From assembly GCA_951804945.1 (NCBI GenBank), contig OX638155.1:5456001-5520000 (forward strand): a stretch of 64,000 bases of DNA. The letters run 5' to 3'. Within the stretch, counting starts at the first letter, position 1. The number at the start of each line of letters is the position of its first letter. Under the pieces are notes generated by a model. That model did no database searches. It was not told where the DNA came from and saw only the letters and a list, made by a program, of their open reading frames with translations. Both the position numbers and the translations under genes were made by a program. This stretch comes from Podarcis cretensis (taxonomy: Eukaryota). Below are positions 1,593-64,000 of this stretch, piece by piece.

Positions 1593-2402
1593 TTTATTGT
1601 GGGGGCCAAAGGCCTGTAGGAGTTGGCTCCTATGGCCAGAGTCAAGGTAAGGTTGTCCAACCAAGGTAGGTAGCAGAAAATTCTTTTCCAGCTCCTACAG
1701 TTGTAGACTGTAAGGGAGGCTGTCAGTTAAGTAGTTAACCATGTTGCATATAAACTCTTTCACTTAGTGAAATTGTGGCCGAAATTGTGGCCCTACTTCA
1801 GTCTTCATTTTGTTGTCCTCCTGGTATGCTCATTCTAGATATGGAAGCAAAATGCTTATTATCTTTTAAATTCAAGTCCTTTAGTCTAACTGGGTAGAGG
1901 TTTTAAAGACAAGATGGCAATAAAATCAGATATATTTCTAATTTCTAGAAGTTATTTGTGGTAAGAAATGAAAAAATATATAAATATATATATGGCTTCT
2001 AAAATGTCTAAACTAAAGTAGTGAATAGGCCAGGAAGGAAATGATCAGGAAGGGTGCCTGGTTTTACTGAAATAATGTTATAAGATACACACAATAAAAT
2101 GGTGATATTTGGAATGTTACTTTAATATACAGTACAATCCTATATATGGTTACTCACAAGTAAATTTCCAATGTGATTTATTCCCAGGTAAGTTTGTGTA
2201 GGATTGCAGCCTTAATGTCCTGTTAGCTACAGTGATCCTTTACTGGAGAAAAGCAAAGAAACAAAGCAAAGAAAATCTCATTAAATACAACATTAAATAT
2301 GCGTTGGTAATATTATTGGTAAAAGTTATCCACACATGCAGGAAGTAAACTGCTTAATCGTGTCAACTAGGCTGTCTTTGCCTTTTGTATGACTTTAGCC
2401 AT

Positions 2403-2444
2403 TGCAGTTTTTGGTTGAGACTCTGGGCGCCGCTGTTTACCAAT
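2403..2444 (+). promoter_or_regulatory. CSE / CTCF site of V1 promoter (CGCT box + CCAAT)
   Basis: tgcag-N12-actctgggcgccgctgtttaccaat. CGCT lies 205 bp before the ATG, and the motif recurs before every exon. Confidence 0.85.
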
Positions 2445-2635
2445 GAGAAAGCAAACTGAAATGAAAGATGCAGGGTAAGTTCTTGCACATTGCTAGAAAG
2501 GCAGCTAAATTGGCACACGTCCTCTCTCTCAGTGAAACAGTATAGATTAACAAAAGGATTTTCTGGTTCTTTGCTACAAGATCCTTTGCCACGAGAAAGA
2601 GAAATAGGTAGATGCTCCAAAGGTAATTCTTTGAA

Positions 2636-5050
2636 ATGGCAGCTGCCCTGAGACTCCGACAAGACAGTGGCTCCTTCTGGTTTGCTTTTATTGCCATTTG
2701 GCAGACAAATTATGGGCAGCTCCACTACTCGGTTCCTGAGGAAGTCCCAAAAGGCTCTTTGATTGGGAATATAGCAGAGGACCTGGGACTGGGTTCCAAG
2801 AAATTGTCAGACAACAGAGTTCGCATCATCTCTGAAGGTATGCTTCAATATTTTACTTTGAATTCTAAGAATGGCCAGTTATATGTCTCCGAAAGGATAG
2901 ACAGAGAAGAAATATGCAGGTGGGAAGAGAAGTGTGTTTTAAGTCTTGAAGTCCTTGTTGAGGATAAAATGAAACTGTTCACTGTAGAAATTGAAATCAC
3001 AGATATAAATGACAATGCTCAAACTTTCACCCAGGAACGCTTAGATCTTAAAATAAGTGAAACGGCCATTGTAGGGACTCGTATTGCCTTGCAAGAAGCT
3101 CAGGATTCTGACACTGGAGATTATTCCCTTCAGAACTACCATCTGAGCAGCAGCAGGTATTTCTCCCTGAAACTGCAGAGCAGATCTGAAAAGGACAAGT
3201 TTCCTGAACTGGTGCTAGAGAAATCTTTGGACAGAGAAGCGGAAGCATTTTACTCACTCATCCTAACGGCCACTGATGGTGGGCATCCTGTGAGGTCTGG
3301 CACTCTGCAGATCTATGTAACGGTTCTTGATGCAAATGATAACGCACCCATTTTCAACCAACCTCTCTATAAAGTGAGTGTTTTGGAAAGTGTTTCCATA
3401 GGCTCTCTGCTGCTTACTGTAAATGCTACAGATGCCGATGAGGAAACAAATTCTGAGGTGATTTACTCATTCCTAAAAATAAAGGAGATAGCATCACAGC
3501 TCTTTCAAATAAATTCTAGAAATGGGGAGATATCAACAACAGGGAAGTTGGACTATGAAGAAGATGCATTACATGAAATGGAAGTTCAAGCAAAGGACAA
3601 TGGAGGTCTCTCCGACAGGGCTAAAGTGTTGATCATCCTTATTGACGTTAATGACAATATCCCCAAGATAACTATCACTACCTTCTTCAGTTCAATCAGT
3701 GAAGGAAGCTCTCCAGGAACTGTGGTTGCTCTACTAAACATACAAGACAGAGATAAGGGTGAGAATGGAGAAATCTTGTGCTCAGTTCCTAAAACTCTTC
3801 CTTTCCACTTAGAGAAATCCTTTGATACCTATTACCATTTGATGACTGACAGAGTTCTTGACAGAGAAGAAACTTCAAATTATAGTATAACTATCATGGC
3901 TACAGACAAAGGGAACCCTCCATTATCAACCACTACGGTGTTCTTTGTAGAAATTTCAGATGTAAATGACAATGCCCCAATCTTCAATAACATACAATAT
4001 ACTTCTTATGTAACTGAGAATAATATCAGAGGAGCATCCGTTTACTACATGAAAGCAAGTGATCCTGACTGCATGGAAAATGCTACAATCACGTTTTCAA
4101 TCATTGATCAAATTGTTGGCGATTCTACTCTTTCATCCTACCTTTCTATTAACTCTGAAACCGGGGTTGTTTATGCCTTGATCTCCTTTGATTATGAAGA
4201 GATTAAAGAGATTAATTTCCTGGTCAAGGCTCAGGATGGAGGGTCTCCACCACTCAGCTCCAACGCCTCAGTGACGCTCTTCATCCTGGACCAGAATGAC
4301 AATGCTCCCCAAATCCTGTACCCCTCCCCTCCCACTGACGGCTCCACGGGGATAGAGCTGGCCCCTCGCTCCTCTGAGCCAGGCTACCTGGCCACTAAGG
4401 TGGTGGCCGTGGATGCAGACTCTGGCCAGAATGCCTGGCTCTCCTACCAGCTGATCAAGGCCACTGAGCCAGGGCTCTTCACTCTGGGGCTCCACACGGG
4501 AGAGATCAGGACGGCCCGCTTCTTTCTGGAGAAAGATACCCTCAAGCAAAGCCTGGTGGTTTTAGTCAAGGACAATGGGCAGCCTCCAATGTCGGCTTCA
4601 GTCACTGTCACTGTGGTCTTGGCTGACAGCATCCCTGACATGCTGACTGATCTGAGCAGTGTCCCAGTATCTGAAGACCCACAGTCAGATCTCACCTTCT
4701 ACTTGGTGACTGCAGTGGCTTTTGTCTCCTGCTTGTTCCTCGCCTTCCTCCTTGTGTTATTGGCACTCAAACTTCGCAGGTGGAAAAATTCTCAGTTGTG
4801 TGACAATGGAAGTGTGCATTTTGATGGTGCTCCCATCTCTCAATTTGTGGGGATTGACGGAGTCCGGGCATTTCTTCAGTCTTATTGCCATGAGGTTTCA
4901 CTGACTTCAGGCTCTCGGAAAAGCCAGATTTTTTTCCCAATCGGAAGCTGTACCAATACTCTGACACCACAACAGGCTCCTGATAAGCCAGGCCCTGTGT
5001 TACTCATAGGTGATTCTAACACTGTTACGGAGGAGGCAGCAACCTGTCAA
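2636..5050 (+). CDS. PCDHGA: Protocadherin gamma-A-like variable exon V1 (805 codons to donor)
   Basis: Signal peptide, six cadherin repeats (DxNDN, DRE, DxD), EC1 C-X5-C, TM, and gamma-A cytoplasmic motif [21 protein letters not shown]. Donor CAA|GTGAGT at 5050/5051; unspliced stop at 5062. A numbered human ortholog cannot be assigned. Confidence 0.93.
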
Positions 5051-5419
5051 GTGAGTACATGAATTTCAGTACTTCCGTTTATTTTAAAGTTCAGAAAGTC
5101 AGTTCTTTTATTTTTCCTTATTCAATAGGTTTCATTTTATGTAATTTAATTAAGTTTCTTAAATAACAAAGCTTAATTTTTTGCAACAAATTTTGGTGTC
5201 ATTTACTTTTTTTAACAGATGAAGCAACTACTTCATTAATTTAAATAAATATTGCATTTTATTTAGGTAGTGTTTTAATGATTCCTCTGAGCATAAAATT
5301 TGTTATTGATGGGGATAGCAAAGCCAGAGCACGTATTGCATCAAAGTAATCTTATCTGCATAATTTCTATAAGATGGTTGTAAGAAGCCATCAGGGGATT
5401 TGGAGGGCAGTGTCACCGA

Positions 5420-6345
5420 CACTTAGATGACACTTAGGTCCATTTTTGCATATCATCAGAAGCAAGAGAAGCTGTTCAGGTCCTGAATCACTGTCTGCAG
5501 GTAGTATTGAGCTGGATATGGGCCATTAAATTCAAGCTAAATTCTGACAAGATGCAGGCATTGTAGGTTGGCAGTTTCCAGATCTGAGGACTAGGTTGAT
5601 GACCTGTTCTGGAAGAGATAACAATTGTCTTTAAAGGAACCACATTGTAGCCTGGGGCTGTTGTTGAATTCTACATTGTCACTGGAGTCTGAAGTGACAT
5701 ATCTGGCGAAGAATGCCTATTACCTGCTTTGACAGGTTCTTCAGCTACAGTTGTTCTGCTACTATGACCCAGGCTCAGGTAATCCCCTGAACGGATTACT
5801 ATTACTATATGGAGCTATCCCTGTAGATGGCTCAGAAGATACAGCTAAGCACAGTATGCACCTCCCAGATTGCTGAATGGTACAGCCAGTCTTGTCCAAA
5901 CAGCACTGGTCCTGAAGAACTGATGCTGAGTGTCTGTACATTTCTGACCCCAATTCAAGGAAGGAATATCTGATTCTGTATGAAACTGTCCAGTTTGGTG
6001 TCTCTCTGTGTGTGCATTCTCATTGTTCGCCTATCTAATGAAGTGGAGGGGGGAGCATGCAGGAAAAAACCTTCTTTATTTGAGAACTTCACTTTTGCCC
6101 CTTATCTTATTGCGCTTTCTGTGCCACTTAAGGACAAACCTCTTTGCTCAGGCTTTTGGAGAGGGGTTGGTACTGTGGCCAGTAGTTGTTAGGGTATCAC
6201 CTGCAACGTAAGGGTCCATTTTTTAGAGTTACTGTGTATGTTTCACATGTTTTGTATTGTGTTTTATGTTTTATGGTATTTGATCTGCTCTATATTTTGT
6301 TGTAACTCCCCCTGGGATCAGTGATGAGGGGCGGCTTTACAAACA
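5420..6345 (+). mobile_element. Old degraded L2-clade LINE fragment (ORF2 C-terminal half and 3' end)
   Basis: Remnant translations DDT..., WIWAIKFKLNSDK (cf. WMxxNxLKLNxxK), DY...L and RTNLFAQAF, with multiple stops and frameshifts. Confidence 0.6.
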
Positions 6346-6586
6346 GAAGCAAGGACTCTCATGTTCCAGAAGACACTACTTTTAAGCAATTTGTATTGGA
6401 AAACATCTCCTAATAGAACTGTGATCAGTAATGAAAAGACCAGTGTGTCTTGGTACCAACACATATGTTTGCAATAATGATTGGCTTCACAAGCTGTGTG
6501 CCATAATGTCAGGGTGCAGTAATAGCCATTTCACTGCATCCAATATTGAAAAATGGGTGGAGAGGAGGTGGGTTAAAGTGGAAAAG

Positions 6587-6786
6587 AAAGGTAAAGGCAA
6601 AAGACCCCCGGACAGTTAAGTCCAGTCAAAGGTGAATATGGGGTGCAGTGCTCATCTTACTTCAGGGCAAGGCAGCTGGTGTTTGTCCTCTTGACAGCTT
6701 TCCAGATCATGTGGCCAGCATGTCTAAACTGCTTCTGGTGCAACAGGACACCATGACGAGTGCCAGAGCACATGGAAATGCCGTTT
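6587..6786 (-). mobile_element. Sauria SINE, 5'-truncated
   Basis: The tail reads aaaggtaaagg on +, followed by typical body text (catgtggccagcatg...ggaaatgccgttt). Similar to the copy at 7381. Confidence 0.7.
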
Positions 6787-6920
6787 TCATTTTCATCATA
6801 TATAATTTTTGCATCGTATGTGAGACTGCTACTGAACAGATTCATTATTCAGTTCCCAAGGAAATGGCAATTTCCCAAGGAAATTGTGGGGAATATTGCA
6901 AAGGATCTTTGGTGGAGATG
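6785..6920 (+). pseudogene. Relic 5' fragment of a V2-like gamma-A exon
   Basis: FCIVCETATEQIHYSVPKEM...VGNIAKDL closely matches V2 (about 9031-9150). It is frameshifted and has no ATG region, no CSE and no remainder of the exon. Confidence 0.8.
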
Positions 6921-7380
6921 AATTGTTTCTTAGTCAAAACATGAGATCAGCTCTGTGGTTTCTGTGGCCAATCAAAAATTTGCTTAGAAGCTTGTTCCAC
7001 CTTCTTAACAACCCTGAACTTGCATATCAGAATATAACTGATCTGCAGAAAGGACTTTATGATCTGAAAATAAAGACAATGTACACACTTTTGTAGCCCA
7101 ATATAATCTTTAATAATCTTTAATAAAAACAATTAAAAAGTGAGTGAGAGAGAGAGATAGAGAGAAAATCAGCTAGTTCTGGCCAGTGAGAGAAATGAAC
7201 CAACTTAAGGATGTATATTCAAACTGAAACAGGGAATTGCTGTCTATTTAGGGTTCACTGTGGTGGTGTGAATTTCCAGGCACTCTAGATGGCACCTTTT
7301 AGCTACATTGGAATATAGAACTATATCACAGGTACAAATAAAAAATGTGTTGTGTGAGGGGCACTGGCATTGTATTAGTT

Positions 7381-7545
7381 AAAGGTAAAGGTACCCCTGC
7401 CCGTACGGGCCAGTCTTGACAGACTCTGGGGTTGTGCGCCCATCTCACTTAAGAGGCCAGGGGCCAGCGCTGTCTGGAGACACTTCCGGGTCACGTGGCC
7501 AGCGTGACATCGCTGCTCTGGCGAGCCAGAGCCGCACACGGAAAC
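7381..7545 (-). mobile_element. Sauria SINE, 5'-truncated, with TSD
   Basis: aaaggtaaaggtacccctg...gactctggggttg...cacttccgggtcacgtggccagc...cacggaaac. TSD gtattagtt at 7372-7380 and 7546-7554. CpGs are retained, suggesting a young copy. Confidence 0.85.
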
Positions 7546-8738
7546 GTATTAGTTACCAGTTATCAATAAAGACCTTTTGGAATCATTATGAATTGCCACT
7601 TGAAATGGTCAGGTAAGTGCACTGCAGTTGTCAATCAGAAATCAGAACAGAGCAAGAACATAATACAAAAGCTGTTATAAAGGTCCAACCATGCTTCGAG
7701 AAAATGGTGCTGTTCCTGATCATGCTTAAAAAGGATATAGCATAACTCAAAAGAAGTATAGAAAAGGCCAATGAAAACTATCTAGAAAGACAAGTCTTCC
7801 ATATGAGGTAAGTTTAAAAGATTAATGCTGATCCTAAGCCACACTGCATACCTGCAGGGGAGCAAAGAAGTGGAAGCGCTATGGAGAGGCTATAGGGCAT
7901 TTTTTTCCTTGTTCACACTGGGATCCCCACACTCAATAGCCATTTCCAACCATTTTACACAATGCTAAAACAAACTCAGATTCAATACACCAGCAAATAA
8001 CAACAACATATGCAATAAGCTATGCAATACAGTACCAGATTTCATTCAGTTGTTTTTTTAATGTCACCTTTAATGTATGTCTCGGTGTTACATATAACAG
8101 AAATTTTGACACTGAATATTTTTTTAGAACATATGGAATACACATAAGGTTGCTGTGCTACCAGAATGACTGTGTGGAACTGTAATCCTGTTACCTGGAT
8201 AACAGCTATACAAGTGGGACTTTGTTATATTTAGGAAATATAATAATTAGCACACTGATCATTAAAAGTGTATGTGAGATGTTTGGGTAGGTGGGAATCA
8301 TCCATAAAATAATCCTGTCATAATATAAAGCACCATGCAAAATACCTAGGACACAGCATACCTATATAAAAAGCTACAGTTTGCTGCAGTGTAATCCACA
8401 TTTTTTTTTTAATCAATAACTGAAATGTTTGGGTCATGCACCTGACTGCCCCGTGTCCATTGCTTGCTATGGGGTGGGAGGAGAGAAGAAGACCATTATA
8501 ATTTGTAAATCTCAACCAACATCACTAGCATATATGAGCATGTACCTAAATGCATTGCAATAGGAACATGCTGGACAATTTCTGCATTGTTATTGTAAGT
8601 AAAGCAAGATCCTCTGAGTTGTTTTACTTTGGAGCTTCTCCCAGGAGGATCATTTGCTTGGAATGATAGATATTCCTCTATCAGAATGAAAGTACAAAAG
8701 GCATACACCCCATCTGAGGAATTCTTGTAACATGCTGG

Positions 8739-8775
8739 TGCAGTTTTTGGTTGAGACTCTGGGTGTCGCTGCTCC
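8739..8775 (+). promoter_or_regulatory. CSE / CTCF site of V2 promoter
   Basis: tgcagtttttggttgagactctgggtgtcgctg; CGCT 218 bp before the ATG. Confidence 0.85.
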
Positions 8776-8984
8776 CTAACCAGGCAGAGAAATGCACTGA
8801 GAGATGTTGCCATCTCAGTGCTGCTGCTCCACCTAGAAAGGGAATGCAAGGGAACAGAAACAAAGAAGATCTAGGAAGATCTAGGAAGATCCACTGGATT
8901 TGCTATTTTATTTTATTTTATTTTTGCTAAGATATTGGACCATCCAGGTTTAAGGGACTGAAAGTAAGAAGATAACATCTGGAA

Positions 8985-11414
8985 ATGGCTATTGCAACAC
9001 ATTTCTGTCTTAGGTTCTACAAGGACACAGCTTTCATTTCCATCATATTTTTTTGCATCGCATGTGAGACTGCTGCGGAACAGATTCATTATTCAGTTCC
9101 TGAGGAAATGCCAAAAGGTTCCTTTGTGGGGAATATTGCAAAGGATCTTAGACTGGATATAAAGGATTTTTCACATTATGGAGTCAGCTTTGTTTGCAGA
9201 GGTAAGATGGAATATTTTGCTTTAAACAATAAGAATGGCCATTTATACATTAAGGAAAGACTGGACAGAGAGCAGACCTGTCCCCAGATACAAAGATGTC
9301 TCTTTAATTGTGAAGTTATTATAGAAGATGCAATGAAGATTTATACAATTGAAGTAGAAATAATTGATGTCAACGACAATGCTCCAAGCTTCAAATCAGC
9401 TCAACTTCAGATAAAAATCAGTGAGATGACTGAAGGTGGGACACGATTCCGTCTGGAAGATGCCCAGGATCCAGATTTAGGGATGAATTCTGTCCAGAAT
9501 TATAAACTTAGTGCAAACAGACACTTTTCTCTGGATCTACAAACTAGATTGGATAGTGCAATATATGCAGAGATTGTACTGGAAACATCACTGGACCGAG
9601 AAGAACAAAATGTGCATGACCTTATCCTCACCGCCTTTGATGGGGGGGATCCACCTAAATCTGGAACAACCCAAATCCATATTATTGTCCTTGATGCAAA
9701 TGACAACACACCCATCTTCAGCCAACTTGTATACAAAGTGACCATTGCAGAAAATGCGCCCACAGGCTATACAGTAGTCACAGTAAGAGCCACTGACCTG
9801 GATGAAGGAATCAACAGAGAAATAACATACTCCTTCAGAAAAATATCTGACGCAGCTTCTCAAAACTTCCACATAAACTCAGAAGCAGGTGAAATTATTC
9901 TTGTGGGGAACCTGGATTATGAAGAATCTACATTGTATGAAATAGAGATTCAGGCCATTGATGGGGGAGGACTATTTAATATATCAGAAGTTGTGATTTT
10001 TGTAAGTGATGTTAATGACAATGCACCTGAAATAGCTGTCAGGTCACTTGCCAATTCAGTTCCTGAGGATTCTCAAGCAGGAACTGCCATTGCCTTGATA
10101 AACGTGCACGATGATGATTCTGGAGAGAATGGGAAAGTCATATGTTCTATTCCTAGTAATATCCCTTTCCAATTAACAAAAGCAAATGCTAACTATTACA
10201 CTATGGTCATTGCTAGACCGCTGGACAGGGAGCAAGTAGCAGCCTACAACATCACCATCACAGCCTTGGATCAAGGCATGCCACCTCTTTCATCAACCAC
10301 CTTAATCCTCCTTCAGGTTTTAGACAAGAATGACAATGCTCCATACTTTATGCAACCAGAATACACTTTTTACCTTGTAGAGAACAACCAGAGAGGGGAC
10401 TCTATATTTTCTCTGAAAACAGAGGATCCAGACTGGGGAGAAAATTCAAAAACAACCTATTCCATCATTGAAAGTCAAATGTTTGATTCCTCACTCTCCT
10501 CCTACCTTTCCATTAATTCGGAAACAGGGGTTGGCTATGCCTTGAAAACCTTTGATTATGAAGAGTTTCGGGAGATTAAGTTCCATGTAAGGGCTCAGGA
10601 CGGAGGCTCTCCACCACTCAGCTCCAACGTCTCAGTGACTCTCTTCATCCTGGACCAGAATGACAATGCTCCCCAAATCCTTTACCCCTCCCCTCCGACT
10701 GACGGCTCCACGGGGATAGAGCTGGCCCCTCGCTCCTCTGAGCCAGGCTACCTGGTCACTAAGGTGGTGGCCGTGGATGCAGACTCTGGCCAGAATGCCT
10801 GGCTTTCCTACCAGCTGATCAAGGCCACTGAGCCAGGGCTCTTCACTCTGGGGCTCCACACAGGAGAGATCAGGACGGCCCGCTTCTTTCTGGAGAAAGA
10901 TGCCCTCAAGCAAAGCCTGGTGGTTTTAGTCAAGGACAATGGGCAGCCTCCAATGTCGGCTTCAGTCACTGTCACTGTGGTCTTGGCTGACAGCATCCCT
11001 GACATGCTGACTGATTTGAGCAGCGTCCCAGTATCTGAAGATCCACAGTCAGATCTCACCTTCTACTTGGTGACTGCAGTGGCTTTTGTCTCCTGCTTGT
11101 TCCTTGCCTTCCTCCTTGTGTTATTGGCACTCAAACTTCGCAGATGGAAAAATTCTCAGCTGTCTGATAATGCAAGTTTGAATTTCAGTGGTGCACCAGT
11201 TTCACAGTTTGTGGGGATTGACGGAGTCCGGGCATTTCTTCAGTCTTATTGCCATGAGGTTTCACTGACTTCAGGCTCTCGGAAAAGTCAGATTCTTTTT
11301 CCAATCGGAAGCTGTACCAATACTCTGACCCCACAACAGGCTCCTGATAAGCCAGGCCCTGTGTTACTCATAGGTGATTCTAACACGGGTACGGAGGAGG
11401 CAGCAACCCACCAG
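8985..11414 (+). CDS. PCDHGA: Protocadherin gamma-A-like variable exon V2 (810 codons to donor)
   Basis: Same domain architecture as V1. Donor CAG|GTGAGT at 11414/11415; unspliced stop at 11426. Confidence 0.93.
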
Positions 11415-15725: not shown

Positions 15726-18149
15726 ATGAAAGAAAATCAAAAGCTATGGATCTGCAAAGAAAGGGTCTTGCGATGCCTCATAATTGTGCTTGCTTGGAAG
15801 ATAGTTTCTGGGAAGATTCATTATTCCATTCCTGAGGAGATGCAGAAAGGCTCTTTTGTGGGGGATATTGCAAAGGATCTAGGAGTGGATAGAAATCATC
15901 TTTCAGACCACGGACTACGGATTGTTACCAGGACAGGTATGAGTCAGTATTTTGCTTTGAATTACAACAGTGGCCATTTACAAACCTCTCAGAGAATAGA
16001 CAGAGAGGAAGTCTGTGGAAGGGCAGAAAGGTGTGTTTTAAGTTTTGATGTTATAGTTGAGAGCAAAATAGAGATCTATGGGGTTCAAGTGGAAATTATT
16101 GATATAAATGATAATGTTCCCCAGTTCTCATCGGGGAAACTGGAACTGAAAATCAGTGAGGCATCTACTGCCGGATCCCGGTTCCCTCTGCCTGAAGCTC
16201 AGGATCCAGACCTAGGGATAAATTCTATACAGACCTACCAACTCACAGGCAGTAGCCATTTTTCTCTGGAGGTGCAAGTTGAAGAAAATGGTGCCAAATC
16301 TGCTGAGCTGGTGTTGGGGAAAAATCTGGACCGGGAAGAGCAAGCTGTTTTCAACCTGATCCTCACAGCTACTGATGGAGGCGATCCAGTCAGGTCCAGC
16401 ACTGCTAACATCCAAGTCATTGTTTTAGATGCAAATGACAATGCACCTGTTTTCAGCAAACCAATCTATGAAATGAGCATCAAGGAGAACATTCTGAACG
16501 GGTCCAGCATTGCTACAGTTAGTGCTACTGATCTGGATGAAGGACAAAACGGAGAGATAAAATATTCATTCAAAAAAATCACAAAGAAGGATTCCAAAAT
16601 GTTTATTTTAAACTCAACAACTGGTACAATTACCTTAATGGGAAACCTTGATTATGAGGAATCATCCTCCTATGACTTTGAGGTGAAGGCTGAGGATGGA
16701 GGAGGGCTGAGTGACTGGTCAAAAGTTGTGATAATTGTTACGGATGTTAATGACAATGCACCTGAACTATCAATAACCTTTTTCATCAATACCATTTCTG
16801 AGAATTCACCAATAGGAACAGTTATTGCCCTTCTAAACGTACAAGATGAAGATTCAGGGGTCAATGGGGAGGTCACATGTTCAATTCCGAGTAAGCTCCC
16901 TTTCCAATTAAAACAGTCTTTTGATAACTTTTATAGTTTGGTGACACACAGTAACCTTGACAGAGAGAGCACAGCGGACTATAACATCACTATCACAGCT
17001 ACTGACCATGGAATTCCACCACTTTCTGTATCAACTTTTATCCTACTTCAAATCCAAGACACAAATGACAACCCTCCTGTTTTTGCAGAACCATCTTACT
17101 TGGCTTATTTTACAGAGAACAATCCAAGAGGAGCTCAAGTATTTTCCTTAAAAGCAAATGATCCAGACTGGGAGGAAAATGCCAGAATAAGTTATTCCAT
17201 AATTGAAGGGAACATGGACAAATTCCTTATTACCTCCTACCTCTCCATTAACTCAGAGACAGGGGTCATCTATGCTCTGAGTTCTTTTGACTATGAAGAG
17301 ATCAGGGAGATGAAGTTCCTGGTCAAGGCTCAGGATGGAGGTTCTCCACCACTCAGCTCCAATGTCTCAGTGACTCTCTTCATCCTGGACCAGAATGACA
17401 ATGCACCCCAAATCCTTTACCCCTCCCCTCCCACTGATGGCTCCACGGGGATAGAGCTGGCCCCTCGCTCCTCTGAGCCAGGCTACCTGGTCACTAAGGT
17501 GGTGGCTGTGGATGCGGACTCTGGCCAGAATGCCTGGCTCTCCTACCAGCTGATCAAGGCCACTGAGCCAGGGCTCTTCACTCTGGGGCTCCACACGGGA
17601 GAGATCAGGACGGCCCGCTTCTTTCTGGAGAAAGATGCCCTCAAGCAAAGCCTGGTGGTTTTAGTCAAGGACAATGGGCAGCCTCCAATGTCGGCATCAG
17701 TCACTGTCACTGTGGTCTTGGCTGATAGCATCCCTGACATGCTGACTGATCTGAGCAGTGTCCCAGTATCTGAAGACCCACAGTCAGATCTCACCTTCTA
17801 CTTGGTGACTGCAGTGGCTTTTGTCTCCTGCTTGTTCCTTGCCTTCCTCCTTGTGTTATTGGCACTCAGACTTCGCAGGTGGAAAAATTCTCAGCTATGT
17901 GATAATGCAAGTTTGAATTTCAGTGCTGCACCAGTTTCACAGTTTGTGGGGATTGACGGAGTCCGGGCATTTCTTCAGTCTTATTGCCATGAGGTTTCAT
18001 TGACTTCAGGCTCTCGGAAAAGTCAGATACTTTTTCCAATTGGAAGTTGTACCAATACTCTGACACCACAGCAGGCTTCTGATAAACCAGGCCCTGTGTT
18101 ACTCATAGGTGATTCTAACACAGTTACGGAGGAGGCAGCAATCCATCAA
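15726..18149 (+). CDS. PCDHGA: Protocadherin gamma-A-like variable exon V3 (808 codons to donor)
   Basis: Full architecture. Donor CAA|GTGAGT at 18149/18150; unspliced stop at 18161. Confidence 0.93.
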
Positions 18150-23297: not shown

Positions 23298-25724
23298 ATG
23301 GGAGAAAATCAGAAGCAATGGAGCTGTAAAGAGACAATCTTGTTGCAATGCCTCATATTGATGTTCATTTTGAAGACAGTTTCTGCACAACTTCATTATT
23401 CCATTCCAGAGGAGATGCAGAAAGGCTCTTTTGTGGGAAATATTGCAAAGGATCTAGGAATGGATGGAAATAATCTTTCAAACCGTGAGCTCCGGATTCT
23501 TACCAGAACAGGTATGATTCAGTATTTTGCTTTGAACTACAACAGTGGTCATTTACAAACCACTGAGAGAATTGACAGAGAAGAAATTTGTGCATGGGCA
23601 GAGAAGTGCAAATTAAATTTTCAGGTTATTGTTGAGAGTAAAAGAAAACTTTATGGAGTTGAAGTGGAAGTTACTGATATAAACGATAATGCTCCCCACT
23701 TTCCTCCAGGACAACTGGAGGTGAAAATTAATGAAATATCTATAAAAGGGTCTCGGTTTCCACTGCCTGAGGCTACTGATCCAGATCTGGGGATAAATTC
23801 TGTTCAGAATTACCAACTCACAGGCAGCGTGCATTTTTCTCTGAATGTTCAAACAGGAGAAAATGGTCCCAAACATGCTGAGCTGGTGCTGGAAAAATCT
23901 TTGGACAGAGAGGAACAGTCAGTTTATGATCTAATTCTTATGGCTATGGATGGGGGTGATCCTGTCAGGACTGGCACTGCTCAAATTCAAGTCATTGTTT
24001 TAGATGTAAATGACAACACACCAATTTTTAGCCAACCAGTCTATGAAATCAGCATTGAGGAGAACATTCCCAAAGGGTCCATAGTCTGTGCAGTCAAAGC
24101 CACTGATCTGGATGAAGGAATCAACGGAGAAGTGAAATACTCCTTCAAAAAAACCACAAAAAAGGATTCACAAATGTTTCTTTTAAATTCAACAACTGGC
24201 ATAATAACCCTCATGGGAAACTTGGACTTTGAGACATCATCCTTCTATGAATTTGAGGTGCAAGCCATGGATGGGGGTGGTCTAAGTGACAGGTCAAAGG
24301 TTGTGATCATGGTCACAAATCTGAATGACAATGCGCCAGAATTAACTGTGACCTTTCTGACCAACTCCATTCATGAGAACTCATCAACCGGAACAGTTAT
24401 TGCTATTATAAATGTAGAAGATCAAGATTCTGGAATCAATAGTGAGGTCACATGCACAATTCCCAGAAACCTCCCGTTTCAGCTAAAACAATCCATAGAC
24501 AACTTTTATAGTTTGGTGACAGATGGCCCCCTTGACAGAGAACAAGTGGCAAACTACAACATCACCATCACAGTAACTGACCATGGAATGCCTTCTCTTT
24601 CTACAGCCACCATCATAGCTCTGCACATTTTAGACACAAATGATAACCCACCTCACTTTGCAAGATCAGATTACAAGTCATTTTTCATGGAAAATAATCA
24701 GAGAGGAGCATCCATCTTTTCTCTAAATGCAAATGATCCAGACTGGGAAGAGAACTCCAGAATAACATATTCCATCATAGAAAGTCAAGTGACTGGCTCC
24801 CCTCTCTCCTCCTACCTCTCCATTAACTCAGAGACAGGGGTCATCTATGCTCTGAGTTCTTTTGACTATGAAGAGATCAGAGAGATGAGGTTCCTGGTCA
24901 AGGCCCAGGATGGAGGTTCTCCACCACTCAGCTCCAACGTCTCGGTGACGCTCTTCATCCTGGACCAGAATGACAATGCTCCCCAAATCCTTTACCCCTC
25001 CCCTCCCACTGACGGCTCCACGGGGATAGAGCTGGCCCCTCGCTCCTCTGAGCCAGGCTACCTGGTCACTAAGGTGGTGGCCGTGGATGCAGACTCTGGC
25101 CAGAATGCCTGGCTCTCCTACCAGCTGATCAAGGCCACCGAGCCAGGGCTCTTCACTCTGGGGCTCCACACGGGAGAGATCAGGACAGCCCGGTTCTTTC
25201 TGGAGAAAGATGCCCTCAAGCAAAGCCTGGTGGTTTTAGTCAAGGACAATGGGCAACCTCCAATGTCGGCTTCAGTCACTGTCACTGTGGTCTTGGCTGA
25301 CAGCATCCCTGACATGCTGACTGATCTGAGCAGCGTCCCAGTATCTGAAGACCCACAGTCAGATCTCACCTTCTACTTGGTGACTGCAGTGGCTTTTGTC
25401 TCCTGCTTGTTCCTTGCCTTCCTCCTTGTGTTATTGGCACTCAAACTTCGCAGATGGAAAAATTCTCAGCTGTGTGATAATGCAAGTTTGAATTTCAGTG
25501 GTGCACCAGTTTCACAGTTTGTGGGGATTGATGGAGTCCGGGCATTTCTTCAGTCTTATTGCCATGAGGTTTCACTGACTTCAGGCTCTCGGAAAAGTCA
25601 GATTCTTTTTCCAATCGGAAGCTGTACCAATACTCTGACACCACAACAGGCTCCTGATAAGCCAGGCCCTGTGTTACTCATAGGTGATTCTAACACGGTT
25701 ACGGAGGAGGCAGCAATCCCTCAG
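23298..25724 (+). CDS. PCDHGA: Protocadherin gamma-A-like variable exon V4 (809 codons to donor)
   Basis: Full architecture. Donor CAG|GTGAGC at 25724/25725; unspliced stop at 25736. Confidence 0.93.
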
Positions 25725-29837: not shown

Positions 29838-32267
29838 ATGGATGTGATGGAAGTAAAGCAGGCAGAGAGAACAAGGAAGATCACCAGGAGGCAAGTACTG
29901 TTTCTGTTCATATTCTGGTCTGTGTTCTGCTGCCAGGTAGCGTCTGAGAAGGTTCAGTATTCAGTTCCAGAGGAAGCAGAGCAGGGGTCCTTTGTGGGGA
30001 ACCTTGCTAAAGATCTGGGGTTGGATCTCAGAGAGCTGTCAAAGCGCAAGCTTGGTATTTCTTCAGAAAAGCAATTCTTTGATCTGAATGAACAAAATGG
30101 CAACCTGTATGTGAATGAGAGGATAGACCGGGAAGAGATTTGTGGGGAATCATCTACTTGTGTCGTAAAACTAGAAGTTGTGGCACACAATCCTTTGAAT
30201 ATTTTCCAAGTAAATATTTTTATTCAGGATACTAATGACAATGCTCCACATTTCCGGAATGAAAATATTGAGCTTAAATTTAGTGAATCTACTCTGCCGG
30301 GAACTCGATTTGCTCTTGGAAATGCTGAAGATGATGATATCGGAATAAACTCCCTCCAGAATTATCAGTTGAGCTCAACTCCATATTTCAAACTAGAAAT
30401 TCAAAACAGCAATGATGGTGGAAAATATGCAGAATTAATATTGCAGAAACAACTGGACAGGGAAAAAGAACACATGCACCACATGGTCCTTACAGCCATG
30501 GATGGTGGAGAACCTCCAAAAACCGGAACAGCCAAAATATTGGTAACAGTTGTTGATATTAATGACAATGCCCCTGTTTTCACCCAGACAATCTATAAAG
30601 TGAGCCTGAAGGAGAGTGCACCCAAAAGAACCTCTGTGCTTCAAGTCAAAGCATCTGACAGTGATGAAGGGTCCAATGCTGAGATCACTTACACTTTCAG
30701 TGACATCCCAAAAACAGCTGAGCAGAAGTTTCATCTGGATCCCAGAGATGGAACAATTACACTTATAGAAAGTGTTGATTTTGAGGATAGACAAAAATAT
30801 GTGATGATAATTCAGGCAAGTGATGGAGGAGGATTGGCAGCACATTGCAATGTGGAGATTGAGGTTCTTGATGAGAATGACAATGCTCCAGATGTGATCC
30901 TCACATCCGTGTCCAGCCTAGTTCCGGAAGATGTCACATCTGGAGCTGTGATTGCTCTCATTAAAGTTCAGGACAGGGATTCTGGGGATAATGGAGAAGT
31001 CACCTGTCACCTGAGGGAACTTGGACCTTTCCTTATAGTCTCATCTTTGGATAATTATTTCAAGCTCCTCATAGATGGTGCCCTTGACAGAGAAAGGACT
31101 CCTGAGTATAATATTACAATCACAGCCACAGACAAAGGCACCCCTCCACTCTCCACACACAAATCCATATCCATACAGATCTCAGATATCAATGATAACC
31201 CACCAGCCTTTGAAAAATCTTCCTACACTGCCTACGTTCCAGAGAACAACCCATCTGGAGCTTCAATTTTCCATGTCAAGGCCTCTGACCCAGATCTGGA
31301 TCGCAATGCCAGAATCACTTACTCCATCCTTAACAGCAACATCAAGGATCTGCCTCTCTCCTCCTATGTCTCCATTAACTCTGAGACCGGGATCATCTAT
31401 GCCCAACGCTCCTTTGACTATGAGCAATTCAGGGAGTTTCAGATTCAAGTGAAGGCCCAAGATGGAGGTTCTCCACCACTCAATAGCAGTGCCACAGTGA
31501 CAGTATGTGTTTTGGATCGAAATGATAACGCTCCGCAGATCCTGTACCCCTCACAATCAACAGAGGGCTCACCTTTCTTTGAGATGGTGCCTCGGTCAGC
31601 TGAGTCGGGTTATCTGGTGACGAAGGTGGTGGCTGTGGACTCTGATTCGGGACATAATGCCTGGCTCTCCTTCCATCTCCTGCAGGCCACAGAGCCCTCA
31701 CTCTTCAGCATTGGCTCCCACACAGGAGAGGTGCGCACAGTCCGAGCATTACTTGAGAAAGATGCAGTGAAGCAGAGGCTGGTCATCCTGGTGAAGGACA
31801 ATGGGCATCCTCCTCTCTCAGCCACCACAACTTTGAGCCTGGTGTTTGCTGAGAACTTCCAAGAGGCTCTTCCGGAAATGAACTCCCAACCAAATGACTC
31901 AGAATATCAGTCTGATCTACAGTTTTATTTGGTATTGGCCTTGACCTTGGTGTCCTTTCTCTTCCTGGTGACGGTGATTCTGACCATTCTGATGAAGCTT
32001 CAAAGGTCAAGGAACCCCACTTTCCTTCAGTGCTTTATTCCTGACCCCCACTCAAAGGCTGGTGCCATATTCCCACCCAATTATGAGGACGGAACTTTGC
32101 CTTATTCCTACCAGGTCTGTTTGTCCTCTGAATCCAGGAGGAATGAGCTGACATTCCTGCAGCCCACTGTCCAAATAGCAGAGAACCTCCTTTGCAATGG
32201 CAATTCTGACATTTCTTTGATGGTCAGTGGGCGTAATTTAATTTCTGAAAAGGAAAATGGCAGCACG
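29838..32267 (+). CDS. PCDHGB: Protocadherin gamma-B-like variable exon V5 (810 codons to donor)
   Basis: Gamma-B hallmarks: RRQVLF leader, GGLAAHC in EC3, [18 protein letters not shown] start, and [13 protein letters not shown] cytoplasmic motif. Donor ACG|GTGAGT at 32267/32268. The start could be the second Met (codon 4). Confidence 0.92.
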
Positions 32268-41075: not shown

Positions 41076-43478
41076 ATGGAAGGAACTCAGAGGCTGTGGA
41101 ATTGCAGAAAGGGAATCTTCCAGTGCCTTTTCCTGATGTTTTCTTGGAAGGCAGTGTCTGGGCAGATCCACTACTCCATTCCAGAAGAGATGCACAAAGG
41201 CTCTTCCGTGGGGAATATTGCAAAGGACCTGGGAATGGATGGCAAGCAGCTCCCAAACCATGGACTCCGCATTGTGTCTCCTGTAGGTATGATTCAGTAC
41301 TTTTCTTTGAATGCCAACAATGGTCATTTGCAGATATCTGAGAGAATAGATAGAGAGGAAATCTGCAGAGAGGCAGAGAAATGTATGTTAAAGTTTCAGG
41401 TTCTTGTTGAAAGCAAATTGAAGCTTTATGGAATTGAAGTGGAAATTACAGATATAAATGATAATGCTCCCCACTTCCCTCTATGGGAACAGGAGCTGGA
41501 AATCAGTGAGGCATCTATGCCTGGATTCCAGATCTCTCTTCCCGAAGCTCAAGATCCAGATTGGGGGATAAATTCAGTGCAGAGCTATCAACTCACAGGC
41601 AGTAGCCATTTTGCTTTGCATGTGCAAACAGAAGAAAATGGTGCCAGACTTGTTGAACTTGTGTTGGAAAAGTCACTGGACAGAGAGGAACAATCATCTT
41701 ACAATTTGCTTCTCACAGCTACTGATGGAGGTGATCCTATCAGGTCTGGCACATTACAAATTCACATTGTTGTCCTTGATGCAAATGACAATGCACCAGT
41801 TTTCAGCCAACCTCTCTATGAAGTGAGTATCAATGAGAATATTCCCAAGTGGTCCACACTTTTGACAGTGAGAGCAACTGATATGGATGAAGGAATCAAT
41901 GGAGATATTAAATACATTTTCCAAAAAATCACAAAGAAAGACTCCCAAATGTTTCTGTTAAATTCCACAACAGGTGAAATCATCCTTATTGGGAATCTTG
42001 ATTATGAGGAATCATCTTTATATGCATTTGAGATACAAGCCAAAGATGGAGGAGGCCTGAGTGACAGATCAAAAATTGTGATATCTGTTACAGATCTGAA
42101 TGACAATGCACCTGAATTATCAGTTACCTTTGCCACCAACACCATACTTGAAAGTTCACCATCCCAATCGGTAATTGCCATTTTAAATGTCCAAGACCGA
42201 GATTCGGGAATCAATGGGGAAATCACATGTTCAATCCCTAGCAACCTCCCTTTCCAGCTAAAGAAGTCCATGGATAACTTTTACAGTTTGGTGACTGATG
42301 GTGCCCTTGACAGGGAACAGGTGTCAGTCTTCAATATTACTGTCACTGTTACTGACCATGGAGTCCCCCCTCTTTCTACAGTCACAGTTATCACACTTCA
42401 TGTTTTAGACACAAATGACAACCCACCCCTCTTTGAAAAAACAGACTATACTTTCTATTTTGTTGAGAATAACCAAAGAGGAGCCATGGTCTCTTCTTTA
42501 AGAGCAAATGATCTTGACTGGGAAGAAAATGCCAGAATAACATATTCCATCACTGATGACCAAGGAAGTGACTCCCGCCTCTCCTCCTACCTCTCCATTA
42601 ACTCTGAGACGGGGGTCATCTATGCTCTGACCTCCTTTGATTATGAAGAGTTTCGAGACATTAGATTCCGTGTAAAGGCTCAGGACGGAGGTTCTCCACC
42701 ACTCAGCTCTAACGTCTCAGTGACTCTCTTCATCCTGGACCAGAATGACAATGCTCCCCAAATCCTTTACCCCTCCCCTCCCACTGATGGCTCCACAGGG
42801 ATAGAGCTGGCCCCTCGCTCCTCTGAGCCAGGCTACCTGGTCACTAAGGTGGTGGCCGTGGATGCAGACTCTGGCCAGAATGCCTGGCTCTCCTACCAGC
42901 TGATCAAGGCCACTGAGCCAGGGCTCTTCACTCTGGGGCTCCACACGGGAGAGATCAGGACAGCCCGATTCTTTCTGGAGAAAGATGCCCTCAAGCAAAG
43001 CCTGGTGGTTTTAGTGAAGGACAATGGGCAGCCACCTCTCTCTGCTTCAGCCACTCTGACTGTGGTGCTGGCTGACACCATCCCTGCAATCCTCTCAGAC
43101 CTGAGCAGCATCTCAGCTCCTGTAGAGCCTCCGTCTGACCTCACCTTCTACCTGGTCCTTGCAGTGGCTTTTGTCTCCTGCTTGTTCTTTATCTTCCTCC
43201 TCGTGTTACTGGCCATCAAGTTGCACAGATGGAGAAATTCTCAACTGCTTGAGTCGGGGAGTGTGAATTTCAGTGGTGCTCCTATCTCACAGTTTGTGGG
43301 GATTGACGGAGTCCGAGCATTTCTGCACTCCTACTGCCAGGAGGTTTCTCTCACTACAGACTCTAGGAAGGCAAATTATTCCAATACTCTGAGCAATAAA
43401 GAGGCTTGTGAAGCAAAGGATCCTATCCTACCTGGTGAAGATTTAAACTTGAACAATGAAGGCTTAATCATAGTCCAG
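41076..43478 (+). CDS. PCDHGA: Protocadherin gamma-A-like variable exon V7 (801 codons to donor)
   Basis: Full architecture with the second cytoplasmic subtype. Donor CAG|GTGAGC at 43478/43479; the ORF reads 57 codons into the intron to 43652. Confidence 0.93.
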
Positions 43479-49053: not shown

Positions 49054-51456
49054 ATGGAAGAAACCCAGAGACTCGGGAGTTGCAGAAAAGGAATCCTTCA
49101 ATGCCTTGTCATGGTGACTATCTGGAAGCTAATTTCTGGGCAGATCCGCTATTCCATTCCTGAGGAGATGCAGAAAGGCTCTTTTGTGGGGAATGTTGCA
49201 AAGGACCTGGGAATGGATGGGAAGCAGCTTTCAGACCATGGACTCCGCATTGTTTCCAGTGTAGGTATGGTTCAGTATTTTGCTTTGAATGTCAACAATG
49301 GCCATTTACAGATTTCTGAGAGAATAGATAGAGAGGAAATCTGTGGAGAGGCAGACAAATGCATATTGAAGTTGCAGGTTTTTATTGAAAGTAAATTAAA
49401 ACTTTATGGTATTGAAGTGGAAATTACAGATATAAATGACAATGCACCCTGGTTTCTACCAAAGGAATGGAAAATGAAAATCAGTGAGACATCAACACTC
49501 AGAGACAGGTTTCTTTTACCCATAGCTCAGGATCCAGATCTAGGGATCAATTCTATACAAGATTATCAACTTGCAGGCAGTAGCCATTTTTCTCTGCATG
49601 TGCAGACAGGAGAAAATGGGGCAAGACATGCTGAGCTGGTGCTGGAGAAACTTCTGGACAGGGAAGAGCAACCAGATTATGATCTAATCCTCACAGCTAC
49701 TGATGGGGGCGATCCAGTGAGATCTGGTACTGCTCAAATTCATGTGATAGTTCTAGATGCAAATGACAATGCACCGGTTTTCACACAACAGATCTTTGAA
49801 GCAACCATAAAGGAAAATGTTCCTAAAGGGTTTCTAGTTTGCACAGTGCGAGCCACCGATATAGATGAAGGAATCAATGGAGAGGTAAAATACTCCTTTG
49901 GAAAAAACACAGAGAAGATTTCTAAAATGTTTCTATTGAATTCAACAACGGGAGACATTACCCTTGCAGGAAGCCTTGACTTTGAAATATCATCCTTATA
50001 TGAATTTGAGGTGCAAGCCATTGATGGTGGTGGTCTAAGTAACAGATCAAAGGTTGTGATATTTGTAACAGACTTAAATGACAATGCACCTGAAATAGCA
50101 ATAACCTTTGTACTCAATGCTGTGTCTGAGAACACACCAAGTGGAACTGTCATTGCCATTTTAAATGTCCAAGACAGAGATTCAGGAGTCAATGGGGACG
50201 TTATATGCTCAATTCCCAATAGCCTTCCTTTCCAACTAAAGAAAACAATGGACAACTTTTACACTTTAGTGACAGACAGAGCCCTTGACAGGGAACAAGT
50301 GGCGACCTATGACATCCCTATTACAGCAACTGATAATGGGACTCCGACATTATCAACTTCTGCAATTATTTCACTACAGCTGTTAGACACAAATGACAAC
50401 CCCCCATTCTTTTTACAGTCAACCTACACCTCTTATCTCCTAGAAAATAATCCAAGAGGAGCATCAGTCTTTTCCCTGAAAGCAAGTGATCCAGACTGGG
50501 AAGAGAATTCCAGAATAACATATTCCATCACTGACGACCAAGGAAGTGACTCCCGCCTCTCCTCCTACCTTTCCATTAACTCTGAGACGGGGGTCATCTA
50601 TGCTCTGAGTTCTTTTGACTATGAAGAGATCAGAGAGATGAAGTTCCTGGTCAAGGCCCAGGATGGAGGTTCTCCACCACTCAGCTCCAATGTCTCAGTC
50701 ACTCTCTTCATCCTGGACCAGAATGACAATGCTCCCCAAATCCTGTACCCCTCCCCTCCCACTGACGGCTCCACAGGGATAGAGCTGGCCCCTCGCTCCT
50801 CTGAGCCAGGCTACCTGGTCACTAAGGTGGTGGCCGTGGATGCGGACTCTGGCCAGAATGCCTGGCTCTCCTACCAGCTGATCAAGGCCACTGAGCCAGG
50901 GCTCTTCACTCTGGGGCTCCACACGGGAGAGATCAGGACAGCCCGCTTCTTTCTGGAGAAAGATGCCCTCAAGCAAAGCCTGGTGGTTTTAGTGAAGGAC
51001 AATGGGCAGCCACCTCTCTCTGCTTCAGCCACTCTGACTGTGGTGCTGGCTGACACCATCCCTGCAATCCTCTCAGACCTGAGCAGCATCTCAGCTCCTG
51101 TAGAGCCTCCGTCTGACCTCACTTTCTACCTGGTCCTTGCAGTGGCTTTTGTCTCCTGCTTGTTCTTCACTTTCCTCCTTGTATTATTGGCCATCAAGTT
51201 GCACAGGTGGCGAAATTCTCAGCTGCTTGAGTCGGGGAGTGTGAATTTCAGTGGCGCTCCTATCTCACAGTTTGTGGGGATTGACGGAGTCCGAGCATTT
51301 CTGCACTCCTACTGCCAGGAGGTTTCTCTCACTACAGACTCTAGGAAGGCAAATTATTCCAATACTCTGAGCAATAAAGAAGTTTGTGAGGCAAAGGATC
51401 CGATCCTACCTGGTGAAGATTTAAACTTGAACAATGAAGGCTTAATCGTAGTCCAG
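49054..51456 (+). CDS. PCDHGA: Protocadherin gamma-A-like variable exon V8 (801 codons to donor)
   Basis: Full architecture with a V7-type cytoplasmic segment. Donor CAG|GTGAGC at 51456/51457; unspliced stop at 51474. Confidence 0.93.
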
Positions 51457-63058: not shown

Positions 63059-64000
63059 ATGGAAGGAATTCAGAGGCTGTGGAATTGCAGAAAGGGAATT
63101 TTCCAGTGCCTTTTCATGATGTTTTCTTGGAAGGCAGTTTCTGGGCAGATCCACTACTCCATTCCAGAAGAGATGCACAAAGGCTCTTCTGTGGGGAATA
63201 TTGCAAAGGACCTGGGAATGGATGGCAAGCAGCTCCCAAACCATGGACTCCGCATTGTGTCTCCTGTAGGTATGATTCAGTACTTTTCTTTGAATGCCAA
63301 CAATGGCCATTTGCAAATATCTGAGAGAATAGATAGAGAGGAAATCTGCAGAGAGGCAGAGAAATGTACGTTAAAGTTTCAGGTTCTTGTTGAAAGCAAA
63401 TTAAAGCTTTATGGAATTGAGGTGGAAATTACAGATATAAATGATAATGCTCCCCACTTCCCTCTATGGGAACAGGAGCTGGAAATCAGTGAGGCATCTA
63501 TGCCTGGATTCCAGATCCCTCTACCCAAAGCTCAAGATCCAGATTGGGGGATAAATTCCGTGCAGAGCTATCAACTCACAGGCAGTAGCCATTTTGCTTT
63601 GCATGTGCAAACAGAAGAAAATGGTGCCAGACTTGTTGAACTTGTGTTGGAAAAGTCATTGGACAGAGAGGAACAATCAGCTTACGATTTGCTTCTCACA
63701 GCTTCTGATGGAGGTGATCCTAGCAGATCTGGCACATTACAAATCCACATTGTTGTTATTGATGCAAATGACAATGCACCAGTTTTCAGCCAACCTCTCT
63801 ATGAAGTAAGTATCAATGAGAATATTCCCAAGTGGTCCATACTTTTGACAGTGAAAGCAACTGATATGGATGAAGGGATCAATGGAGACATTAAATACTC
63901 TTTCCAAGAAATTACAAAGCGCGACTCCCAAATATTTCTATTAAACTCCACAACAGGTGAAATCATCCTTATTGGGAATCTTGATTATGAGGAATCATCT
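63059..64000 (+). CDS. PCDHGA: Protocadherin gamma-A-like variable exon V10, 5' part (truncated by window; close paralog of V7)
   Basis: ATG at 63059, [17 protein letters not shown]...[10 protein letters not shown], reading to DYEESS at the window end (314 codons). It is absent from the ORF track, consistent with no stop being reached. Confidence 0.9.
   Translation, partial: MEGIQRLWNCRKGIFQCLFMMFSWKAVSGQIHYSIPEEMHKGSSVGNIAKDLGMDGKQLPNHGLRIVSPVGMIQYFSLNANNGHLQISERIDREEICREAEKCTLKFQVLVESKLKLYGIEVEITDINDNAPHFPLWEQELEISEASMPGFQIPLPKAQDPDWGINSVQSYQLTGSSHFALHVQTEENGARLVELVLEKSLDREEQSAYDLLLTASDGGDPSRSGTLQIHIVVIDANDNAPVFSQPLYEVSINENIPKWSILLTVKATDMDEGINGDIKYSFQEITKRDSQIFLLNSTTGEIILIGNLDYEESS

Follow-up and report, generated by a model that had tools for sequence, protein, structure and literature searches.

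Every gamma-A variable exon found in the clustered protocadherin locus of Podarcis cretensis, twelve in all, carries a phase-1 splice-donor motif at the codon for Gly38 of EC1, well upstream of the canonical donor that closes the exon, and its join to the first gamma constant exon would create an early stop codon. The account toward which we lean, by a narrow measure, is that this old internal donor of moderate strength drives unproductive splicing coupled to nonsense-mediated decay (NMD) and would thereby lower the output of the isoform concerned.

The locus and the distribution of the Gly38 site

The stretch of DNA analysed, hereafter the window (64,000 nt; OX638155.1 positions 5456001-5520000), is part of the clustered protocadherin locus and contains seven gamma-A and three gamma-B variable exons, ten in total (Table 1). 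The survey also took in the surrounding beta/gamma region, in which 54 ORFs of at least 400 codons and three gamma constant exons were located, and part of the alpha region. Each gamma-A variable region is a single exon of approximately 2.4 kb, with an ORF of 810-862 codons for a signal peptide followed by cadherin repeats, and ends in a phase-0 GT[AG]AG donor. In a quick tree, the gamma-A exons form a clade of 12 rows apart from the gamma-B, beta, and C-type exons (SH-aLRT 100); the best matches of the V8 EC1 among solved structures are gamma A9, A8, and A1, and its identity to lizard gamma-A proteins reaches 87%. Two variable-exon ORFs elsewhere in the cluster stop early, at 672 codons (L002, contig 5535822) and 492 codons (L025, 5381240), and are likely pseudogenes.

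The initial annotation had placed internal donors in seven gamma-A exons, and all seven GT positions and their flanks proved exact, as did its caution that V7 and V10 are not independent (near twins, 99% identical over 120 nt). All seven window donors are in phase 1 and lie 202-217 nt past the ATG; in gamma-A exons generally, the Gly38 donors match the consensus at 6-7 of 9 positions and precede the canonical donor by about 2.2 kb. Across the cluster, the motif AG/GTA.G (xxA GGT A.G; the slash marks the cut) stands at Gly38 in 12/12 gamma-A exons and a related form, AG/GTAAAA (xxA GGT AAA), occupies the same codon in 8/21 gamma-B exons, while none is found in the beta (0/16), aligned C-type (0/4), or alpha-region (0/13) exons. 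The motif alignment covers 53 of the 54 long ORFs; the remaining one, a fifth C-type exon that missed the EC1 pattern, was examined separately and has Gly38-Met39 coded as GAC GGG ATG, although this exon is GC-rich, which weakens it as a control. Another C-type exon uses GGC for the glycine, and the two together show that the protein does not dictate the motif.

These counts alter one element of the earlier interpretation, namely that gamma-B exons lack the motif and that the donor is specific to gamma-A: the three gamma-B exons in the window do lack it, but with a weaker copy in 8 of the 21 gamma-B exons of the cluster, the statement is true of the window only and the specificity is lost. The eight motif-bearing gamma-B exons (within L003-L012, contig 5540374-5636838) fall in two sister clades, and their positions on the contig alternate with those of motif-free gamma-B exons. 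The site seems less fixed in gamma-B at the level of the protein sequences as well, because two gamma-B rows from another lizard read LGEK. In 6/16 beta exons (within L022-L029), which belong to one clade, a separate donor-like string, TGT/GTGAGT, recurs where the signal-peptide coding part ends, 14 nt short of EC1; it may reflect no more than the coding of Cys-Glu-Ser.

Table 1. Variable exons, internal donors, promoter element, and constant exons. Positions are those of the window unless marked as contig (OX638155.1).
Feature	Position	Strand	Detail
CSE-like promoter element	2414..2441	+	CGCTG core; about 410 nt upstream of V1 donor
Gamma-A variable exon V1	2636..5050	+	ATG to canonical phase-0 donor, GT 5051
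V1 internal donor	2835..2843	+	AAG/GTATGC, GT 2838; EC1 Gly38, phase 1
Gamma-A variable exon V2	8985..11414	+	canonical GT 11415
V2 internal donor	9199..9207	+	GAG/GTAAGA, GT 9202; best U1 pairing among the seven window donors (-9.6 kcal/mol)
Gamma-A variable exon V3	15726..18149	+	canonical GT 18150
V3 internal donor	15934..15942	+	CAG/GTATGA, GT 15937
Gamma-A variable exon V4	23298..25724	+	canonical GT 25725
V4 internal donor	23509..23517	+	CAG/GTATGA, GT 23512
Gamma-B exon, 5′ part	29838..30100	+	no motif (ISSEKQFF, no Gly38); in-window negative control
Two further gamma-B exons	starts 35705 and 55532		no motif; negative controls in the window
Gamma-A variable exon V7	41076..43478	+	canonical GT 43479
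V7 internal donor	41284..41292	+	TAG/GTATGA, GT 41287
Gamma-A variable exon V8	49054..51456	+	canonical GT 51457
V8 internal donor	49262..49270	+	TAG/GTATGG, GT 49265
Gamma-A variable exon V10, 5′ part	63059..64000	+	continues beyond window
V10 internal donor	63267..63275	+	TAG/GTATGA, GT 63270; near twin of V7
Gamma constant exon 1	contig 5686310-5686368		59 nt
Gamma constant exon 2	contig 5696680-5696768		89 nt
Gamma constant exon 3	contig, near 5705600-5705860

Constraint in nucleotides and in amniote proteins

At the gamma-A sites, A at -2, G at -1, G at +1, T at +2, A at +3, and G at +5 are each present in 12/12 exons, with -3 and +4 variable; the fixed positions are the informative ones of U2-type donors. 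In these exons, GGT supplies only 21% of glycine codons and GTA only 15% of valine codons. The string AG/GTR is common to all 12 exons at Gly38; with the homogenised EC6 region set aside, no second column has it in more than 4/12, and the best column of a minus-strand control reaches 6/12 outside EC5-6. Together with the C-type contrast, these results support, at the nucleotide level, the initial proposal that an internal phase-1 donor is under selection; conservation of this kind is evidence of selection on the sequence and does not of itself make splicing the selected function.

Taken one column at a time, the statistics are modest after multiple testing. Gly38 is 1 of 20 strictly invariant four-fold columns with an invariant third base and 1 of 2 invariant four-fold columns among 94 looser ones in gamma-A EC1-4, for which a neutral HKY fit with no rate variation predicts about 0.65. 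When the eight motif-bearing gamma-B exons are added, Gly38 becomes the sole invariant column of 75, with P(all T) = 3.7e-4 per column under a neutral model without rate variation. A third base kept in at least 11/12 rows despite at least four different residues, on the other hand, is also seen at 14/146 other columns. Four-fold identity among gamma-A exons is 0.62 in EC1 vs 0.42-0.46 in EC2-4, and it rises to 0.69 in EC5 and 0.88 in EC6, a strong homogenisation of EC5-EC6 and the 3′ ends. For anole gamma-a, one study reports both a lower dS in EC1 than in EC2-4 (its Table 2) and a comparable homogenisation toward exon 3′ ends (PMC2764143). No single base is decisive, and it is the conjunction of fixed donor positions that stands out.

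The raised synonymous identity of EC1, the weakness of single columns after correction, and the near-invariant third bases at other variable columns all leave some room for a cause other than splicing, such as common descent, local gene conversion, codon usage biased to AT, or a DNA-binding element in the promoter-proximal exon, with any splicing as noise. We nevertheless consider such a cause unlikely: once the V3-V10 clade is set aside, similarity between gamma-A lineages over the 120 nt upstream is only 55-71%, which does not suit recent conversion; the fixed bases are those of a sense-strand donor; and both the amniote residue pattern and a rat record that uses the site, described below, tell against it.

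The residue following Gly38 is M, R, K, or T in 92/93 amniote gamma-A EC1 rows (81 from the database and 12 of our own), which are exactly the four residues of A-N-G codons, and the one row that deviates is a gene model that departs from EC1 at the Gly38 point. For the residue preceding Gly38, an NNA codon exists in 93/93 rows. When columns are scored as the fraction of rows codable in this manner, the post-Gly38 column is the top-scoring of 45 variable columns; under a strict all-row test (fixed first and third base) no column passed, and one gene-model row was the cause. Among the best 120 of 3549 matches, Gly followed by M/T/K/R was found in 79/79 anchored amniote gamma-A-like EC1s (62 squamate, 14 bird, 2 turtle or crocodilian, and 1 mammal, with taxa taken from source names), rows that are interrelated, biased to the clade of V8, and compared at the protein level, the 13 rows with Thr included. 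This count leaves out 22 fish proteins (by source name) and three amniote rows without an anchor. Solved mouse gamma-A EC1s read S-KGKTQLF and S-RGRSQLF, and, at the protein level, squamates, birds, and mammals alike show the residue pattern.

Several further observations were made around the site. A second invariant silent position lies at Ala17 (V1, about 2774-2776), coded GCA in 11/11 gamma-A exons with Ala and mostly GCC in the motif-bearing gamma-B exons; it falls in a purine-rich stretch about 60 nt upstream of the donor that is possibly a splicing enhancer. A conserved RNA hairpin at the donor was considered and rejected, as the consensus (11/12 gamma-A exons, V10 left out) folds at -0.21 kcal/mol with the donor unpaired. 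Six exons bear a one-codon insertion, in which A adjoins GGT in 6/6 and stands one codon further in 1/6, but the alignment cannot tell which codon was inserted, and the pattern was therefore not used as evidence; the excess of AGGTANG in the window (42 observed vs 23 expected) was likewise set aside, because paralogy inflates the count.

The predicted product and the transcript record

Since the internal donor is in phase 1, its join to constant exon 1, which begins in phase 0, shifts the frame, as the initial annotation had predicted. In 7/7 window exons, the joined message would encode 71-76 residues ending ASTT-stop. The stop would fall 216-231 nt past the ATG; the end of constant exon 1 lies 45 nt, and the last (exon 2/3) junction 134 nt, downstream of it. 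As a rule, NMD acts on stops that precede the last junction by over 50-55 nt, and all seven predicted stops lie beyond that limit; NMD is weak in the start-proximal zone, to which this stop is close. As regards the dosage control that had been proposed, decay is predicted from the position of the stop only; no published data on the response of such transcripts to a block of NMD were found in the literature searched.

Pairing with U1 is estimated at -5.6 to -10.7 kcal/mol for the gamma-A internal donors and at -7.1 to -13.8 kcal/mol for the canonical gamma-A donors; usable but mostly the weaker, the internal donor is likely a minor competitor of the canonical one. The course of events that we favour is that the internal donor would compete with the canonical donor further 3′, that a minority of gamma-A transcripts in Podarcis would be spliced from Gly38 to constant exon 1, and that the out-of-frame message with its early stop would be removed by NMD, which would lower the output of the chosen isoform. 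Use of the site in Podarcis, the competition between donors, the decay, and any regulation of the choice are inferred in this scheme.

The homologous site appears to have been used in rat. The record 'protocadherin gamma a2' (AAT77595.1/UniRef100_I6LBX1), which we take to be a cloned cDNA from work on the rat cluster, is a protein of 75 aa that follows EC1 to residue 37 and ends IVSR-ASPAQH, while its mouse cluster mate reads through (IVSR-GKSQLF). The tail ASPAQH plus stop fits the start of Podarcis constant exon 1 (QAQPNTD) in the shifted frame at 7/7 positions; of 20,000 random tails set against constant exon 1, none reached 7 and two reached 6. At least one deposited sequence, the fit suggests, stems from the homologous donor spliced to constant exon 1, so that use in rat is indicated indirectly, by a single protein record; with its break at the Gly38 codon, this protein also bears out the earlier caution that the donor may be ancient. 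The join has no human, mouse, or lizard counterpart among the 120 of 255 matches listed, nor among the 24/24 of a further set. Many UniRef models of 68-85 aa from turtles, birds, and mammals end near Gly38 and were dropped as independent support, because their tails give the impression of having been forced onto the rat protein; the tails of five other Ala-starting models match constant exon 1 at only 1-4 positions.

The squamate RNA data are too shallow to be informative (depth 2-10 in contigs, approximately zero in raw reads), and show no junction from the Gly38 donor. No listed holder of the sequence is on record as RNA. For window positions 2400-9900, compared with two contig and two raw RNA runs, raw depth is zero at the V1 donor and near zero at the V2 donor, no donor starts any of the 15 of 22 joints listed, and the loose ends (24 of 590 listed) are swamped by a high-copy repeat. 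As regards an exitron, whose donor and acceptor would lie within one coding exon, no joint of the V1 donor occurs among those same 15 of 22, and the rat record points to constant exon 1 instead. For the 5′ part of V8 (80% likeness, four contig runs, 21 records), three contigs bridge the donor unspliced, one paralog contig ends 5 nt beyond it, and 0 of the 22 listed loose ends (of 27) carry constant-exon letters; at a depth of 4-10, and because contigs drop rare forms, this result is uninformative on absence.

A secreted micro-isoform was also envisaged by the initial annotation and is its weakest branch; it would be a functional micro-protein, comprising the signal peptide and the first third of EC1 and acting as a decoy or signal. 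Both the lizard join and the rat record stop a few residues into constant exon 1 with the signal peptide kept, and a start-proximal stop may partly escape NMD; yet only 37-38 of about 100 EC1 residues are left, which makes folding improbable, the tails differ (ASTT in the lizard, ASPAQH in rat), and the stop falls under the 50-55 nt rule, so that we regard such a product as very improbable. Of the earlier interpretation as a whole, constraint, frame, and age are supported, while gamma-A specificity and the secreted micro-isoform are not.

A possible U1-binding role near the promoter, known systems, and significance

The main rival to NMD-coupled splicing is a role in U1 binding only, whereby a promoter-proximal U1 snRNP site would aid transcription or block premature polyadenylation of the long (2.4 kb) first exon and splicing would be leakage. 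U1 telescripting is an established phenomenon, and proximal donors stimulate transcription. The Gly38 site is suitably placed for such a role: it lies 393-508 nt downstream of a CSE-like core (the letters of which we take to be CGCTG) in the 14 of 20 motif exons where the pattern found a core, in 9/12 gamma-A exons nothing else donor-like occurs from -350 to +300 around the EC1 start, and gamma-A exons contain 0-4 AATAAA/ATTAAA hexamers each. Nevertheless, 13/21 gamma-B exons, all 16 beta exons, and the C-type exons are equally long and do without the site, most of them having no nearby substitute donor; poly(A) hexamers are about as numerous in exons that lack the site as in those that carry it, and the rat record fits real splicing. 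A U1-only role is a serious contender, though we hold it to be clearly the less probable account. The name of the promoter element follows PMC3601302. A link of U1 telescripting or of the proximal-donor effect to protocadherins was not found in the literature searched.

Several known systems invite comparison with the site. Like promoter-proximal U1/telescripting sites, it is a sense-strand donor motif a few hundred bases past the promoter, but it is found in only part of the cluster and inside a coding exon. Poison exons of SR-protein genes are conserved splice signals whose use creates an NMD-triggering stop; the Gly38 donor resembles them in that its use would leave over 50-55 nt between the stop and the last junction downstream, and differs from their cassette exons in being an alternative donor within the coding sequence of a paralog family. 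To our knowledge, no feedback regulator of the gamma-A internal donor has been described. The closest counterpart is the rat Pcdh-gamma a2 short form, with its break at the same EC1 codon, phase 1, and shifted-frame constant exon 1 tail; it concerns one gene in one mammal, whereas in Podarcis the site is found in all 12 gamma-A and eight gamma-B paralogs, with the tail ASTT. Wu reportedly described, in 2005, internal splicing within variable exons of zebrafish Pcdh. Internal breaks in variable exons are a known kind of event, since the 107-aa record of human PCDHGA3 (A0A087WYH2) leaves EC1 elsewhere, later than the Gly38 point. In zebrafish, Ugt2b1_v4 likewise uses a donor inside a large variable first exon that is spliced to the first constant exon, although, unlike the Podarcis case, the event removes 81 nt near the exon end (PMC2819257). 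Neither the available Ugt2b1_v4 passage nor the PCDHGA3 record describes a site fixed across all paralogs, and the 'short isoform' in the available part of PMC8101739 is a read-through form distinct from the Gly38 splice product.

The accessible portions of several sources make no mention of the Gly38 site (PMC7811963; PMC4978886; PMC2819257; PMC2764143; PMC3601302; bioRxiv 10.1101/2025.11.25.690524; PMC8101739; PMC7335077), and no account of a Gly38 donor or of family-wide constraint on it was found in the literature searched; the primary cluster papers or supplements may describe one. Novelty is limited by the fact that the splice product is already on record, in the rat deposit; what may be new is the fixation of the site across a whole subfamily and the amniotes and its shaping of protein sequence.

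Neurons owe their identity tags to the clustered protocadherins, and promoter choice is where control of these is commonly located. That all gamma-A paralogs, in reptiles through to mammals, retain a donor within the coding sequence suggests a second level of control, be it splice-and-decay or a contribution of U1 to the transcription of so long a first exon. It is conceivable, as a tentative proposition that we would not yet press, that an amniote-wide donor is hard-wired into all gamma-A exons, dictates EC1 loop residues, and serves as a regulated off-ramp to decay for part of the transcripts of each chosen isoform, an overlooked post-transcriptional layer of the identity code that differs among gamma-A, gamma-B, and C-type isoforms. 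The 13/21 gamma-B exons that do without the site count against the favoured account of unproductive splicing. Conservation of EC1 loop residues may, by the same token, reflect constraint on RNA and not on protein, and the prediction follows that 'silent' variants at the Gly38 codon may alter the dose of an isoform. The role of the site can be probed by changing a single silent base in each gene.

Two minor features were noted in the sequence upstream of V1 and V2. A remnant of a V2-like 5′ end (signal peptide end and EC1 start, 91% identical to V2 over 65 nt) lies at window positions 6806-6910; it ends before the donor and adjoins a high-copy transcribed repeat (about 6590-6750 and 7380-7550). 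The 5′ UTR of V1 contains two extra donor-like sites, AGG/GTAAGT (GT 2475; 2472-2480) and AAG/GTAATT (about 2620-2628), which are not common to the other gamma-A exons.
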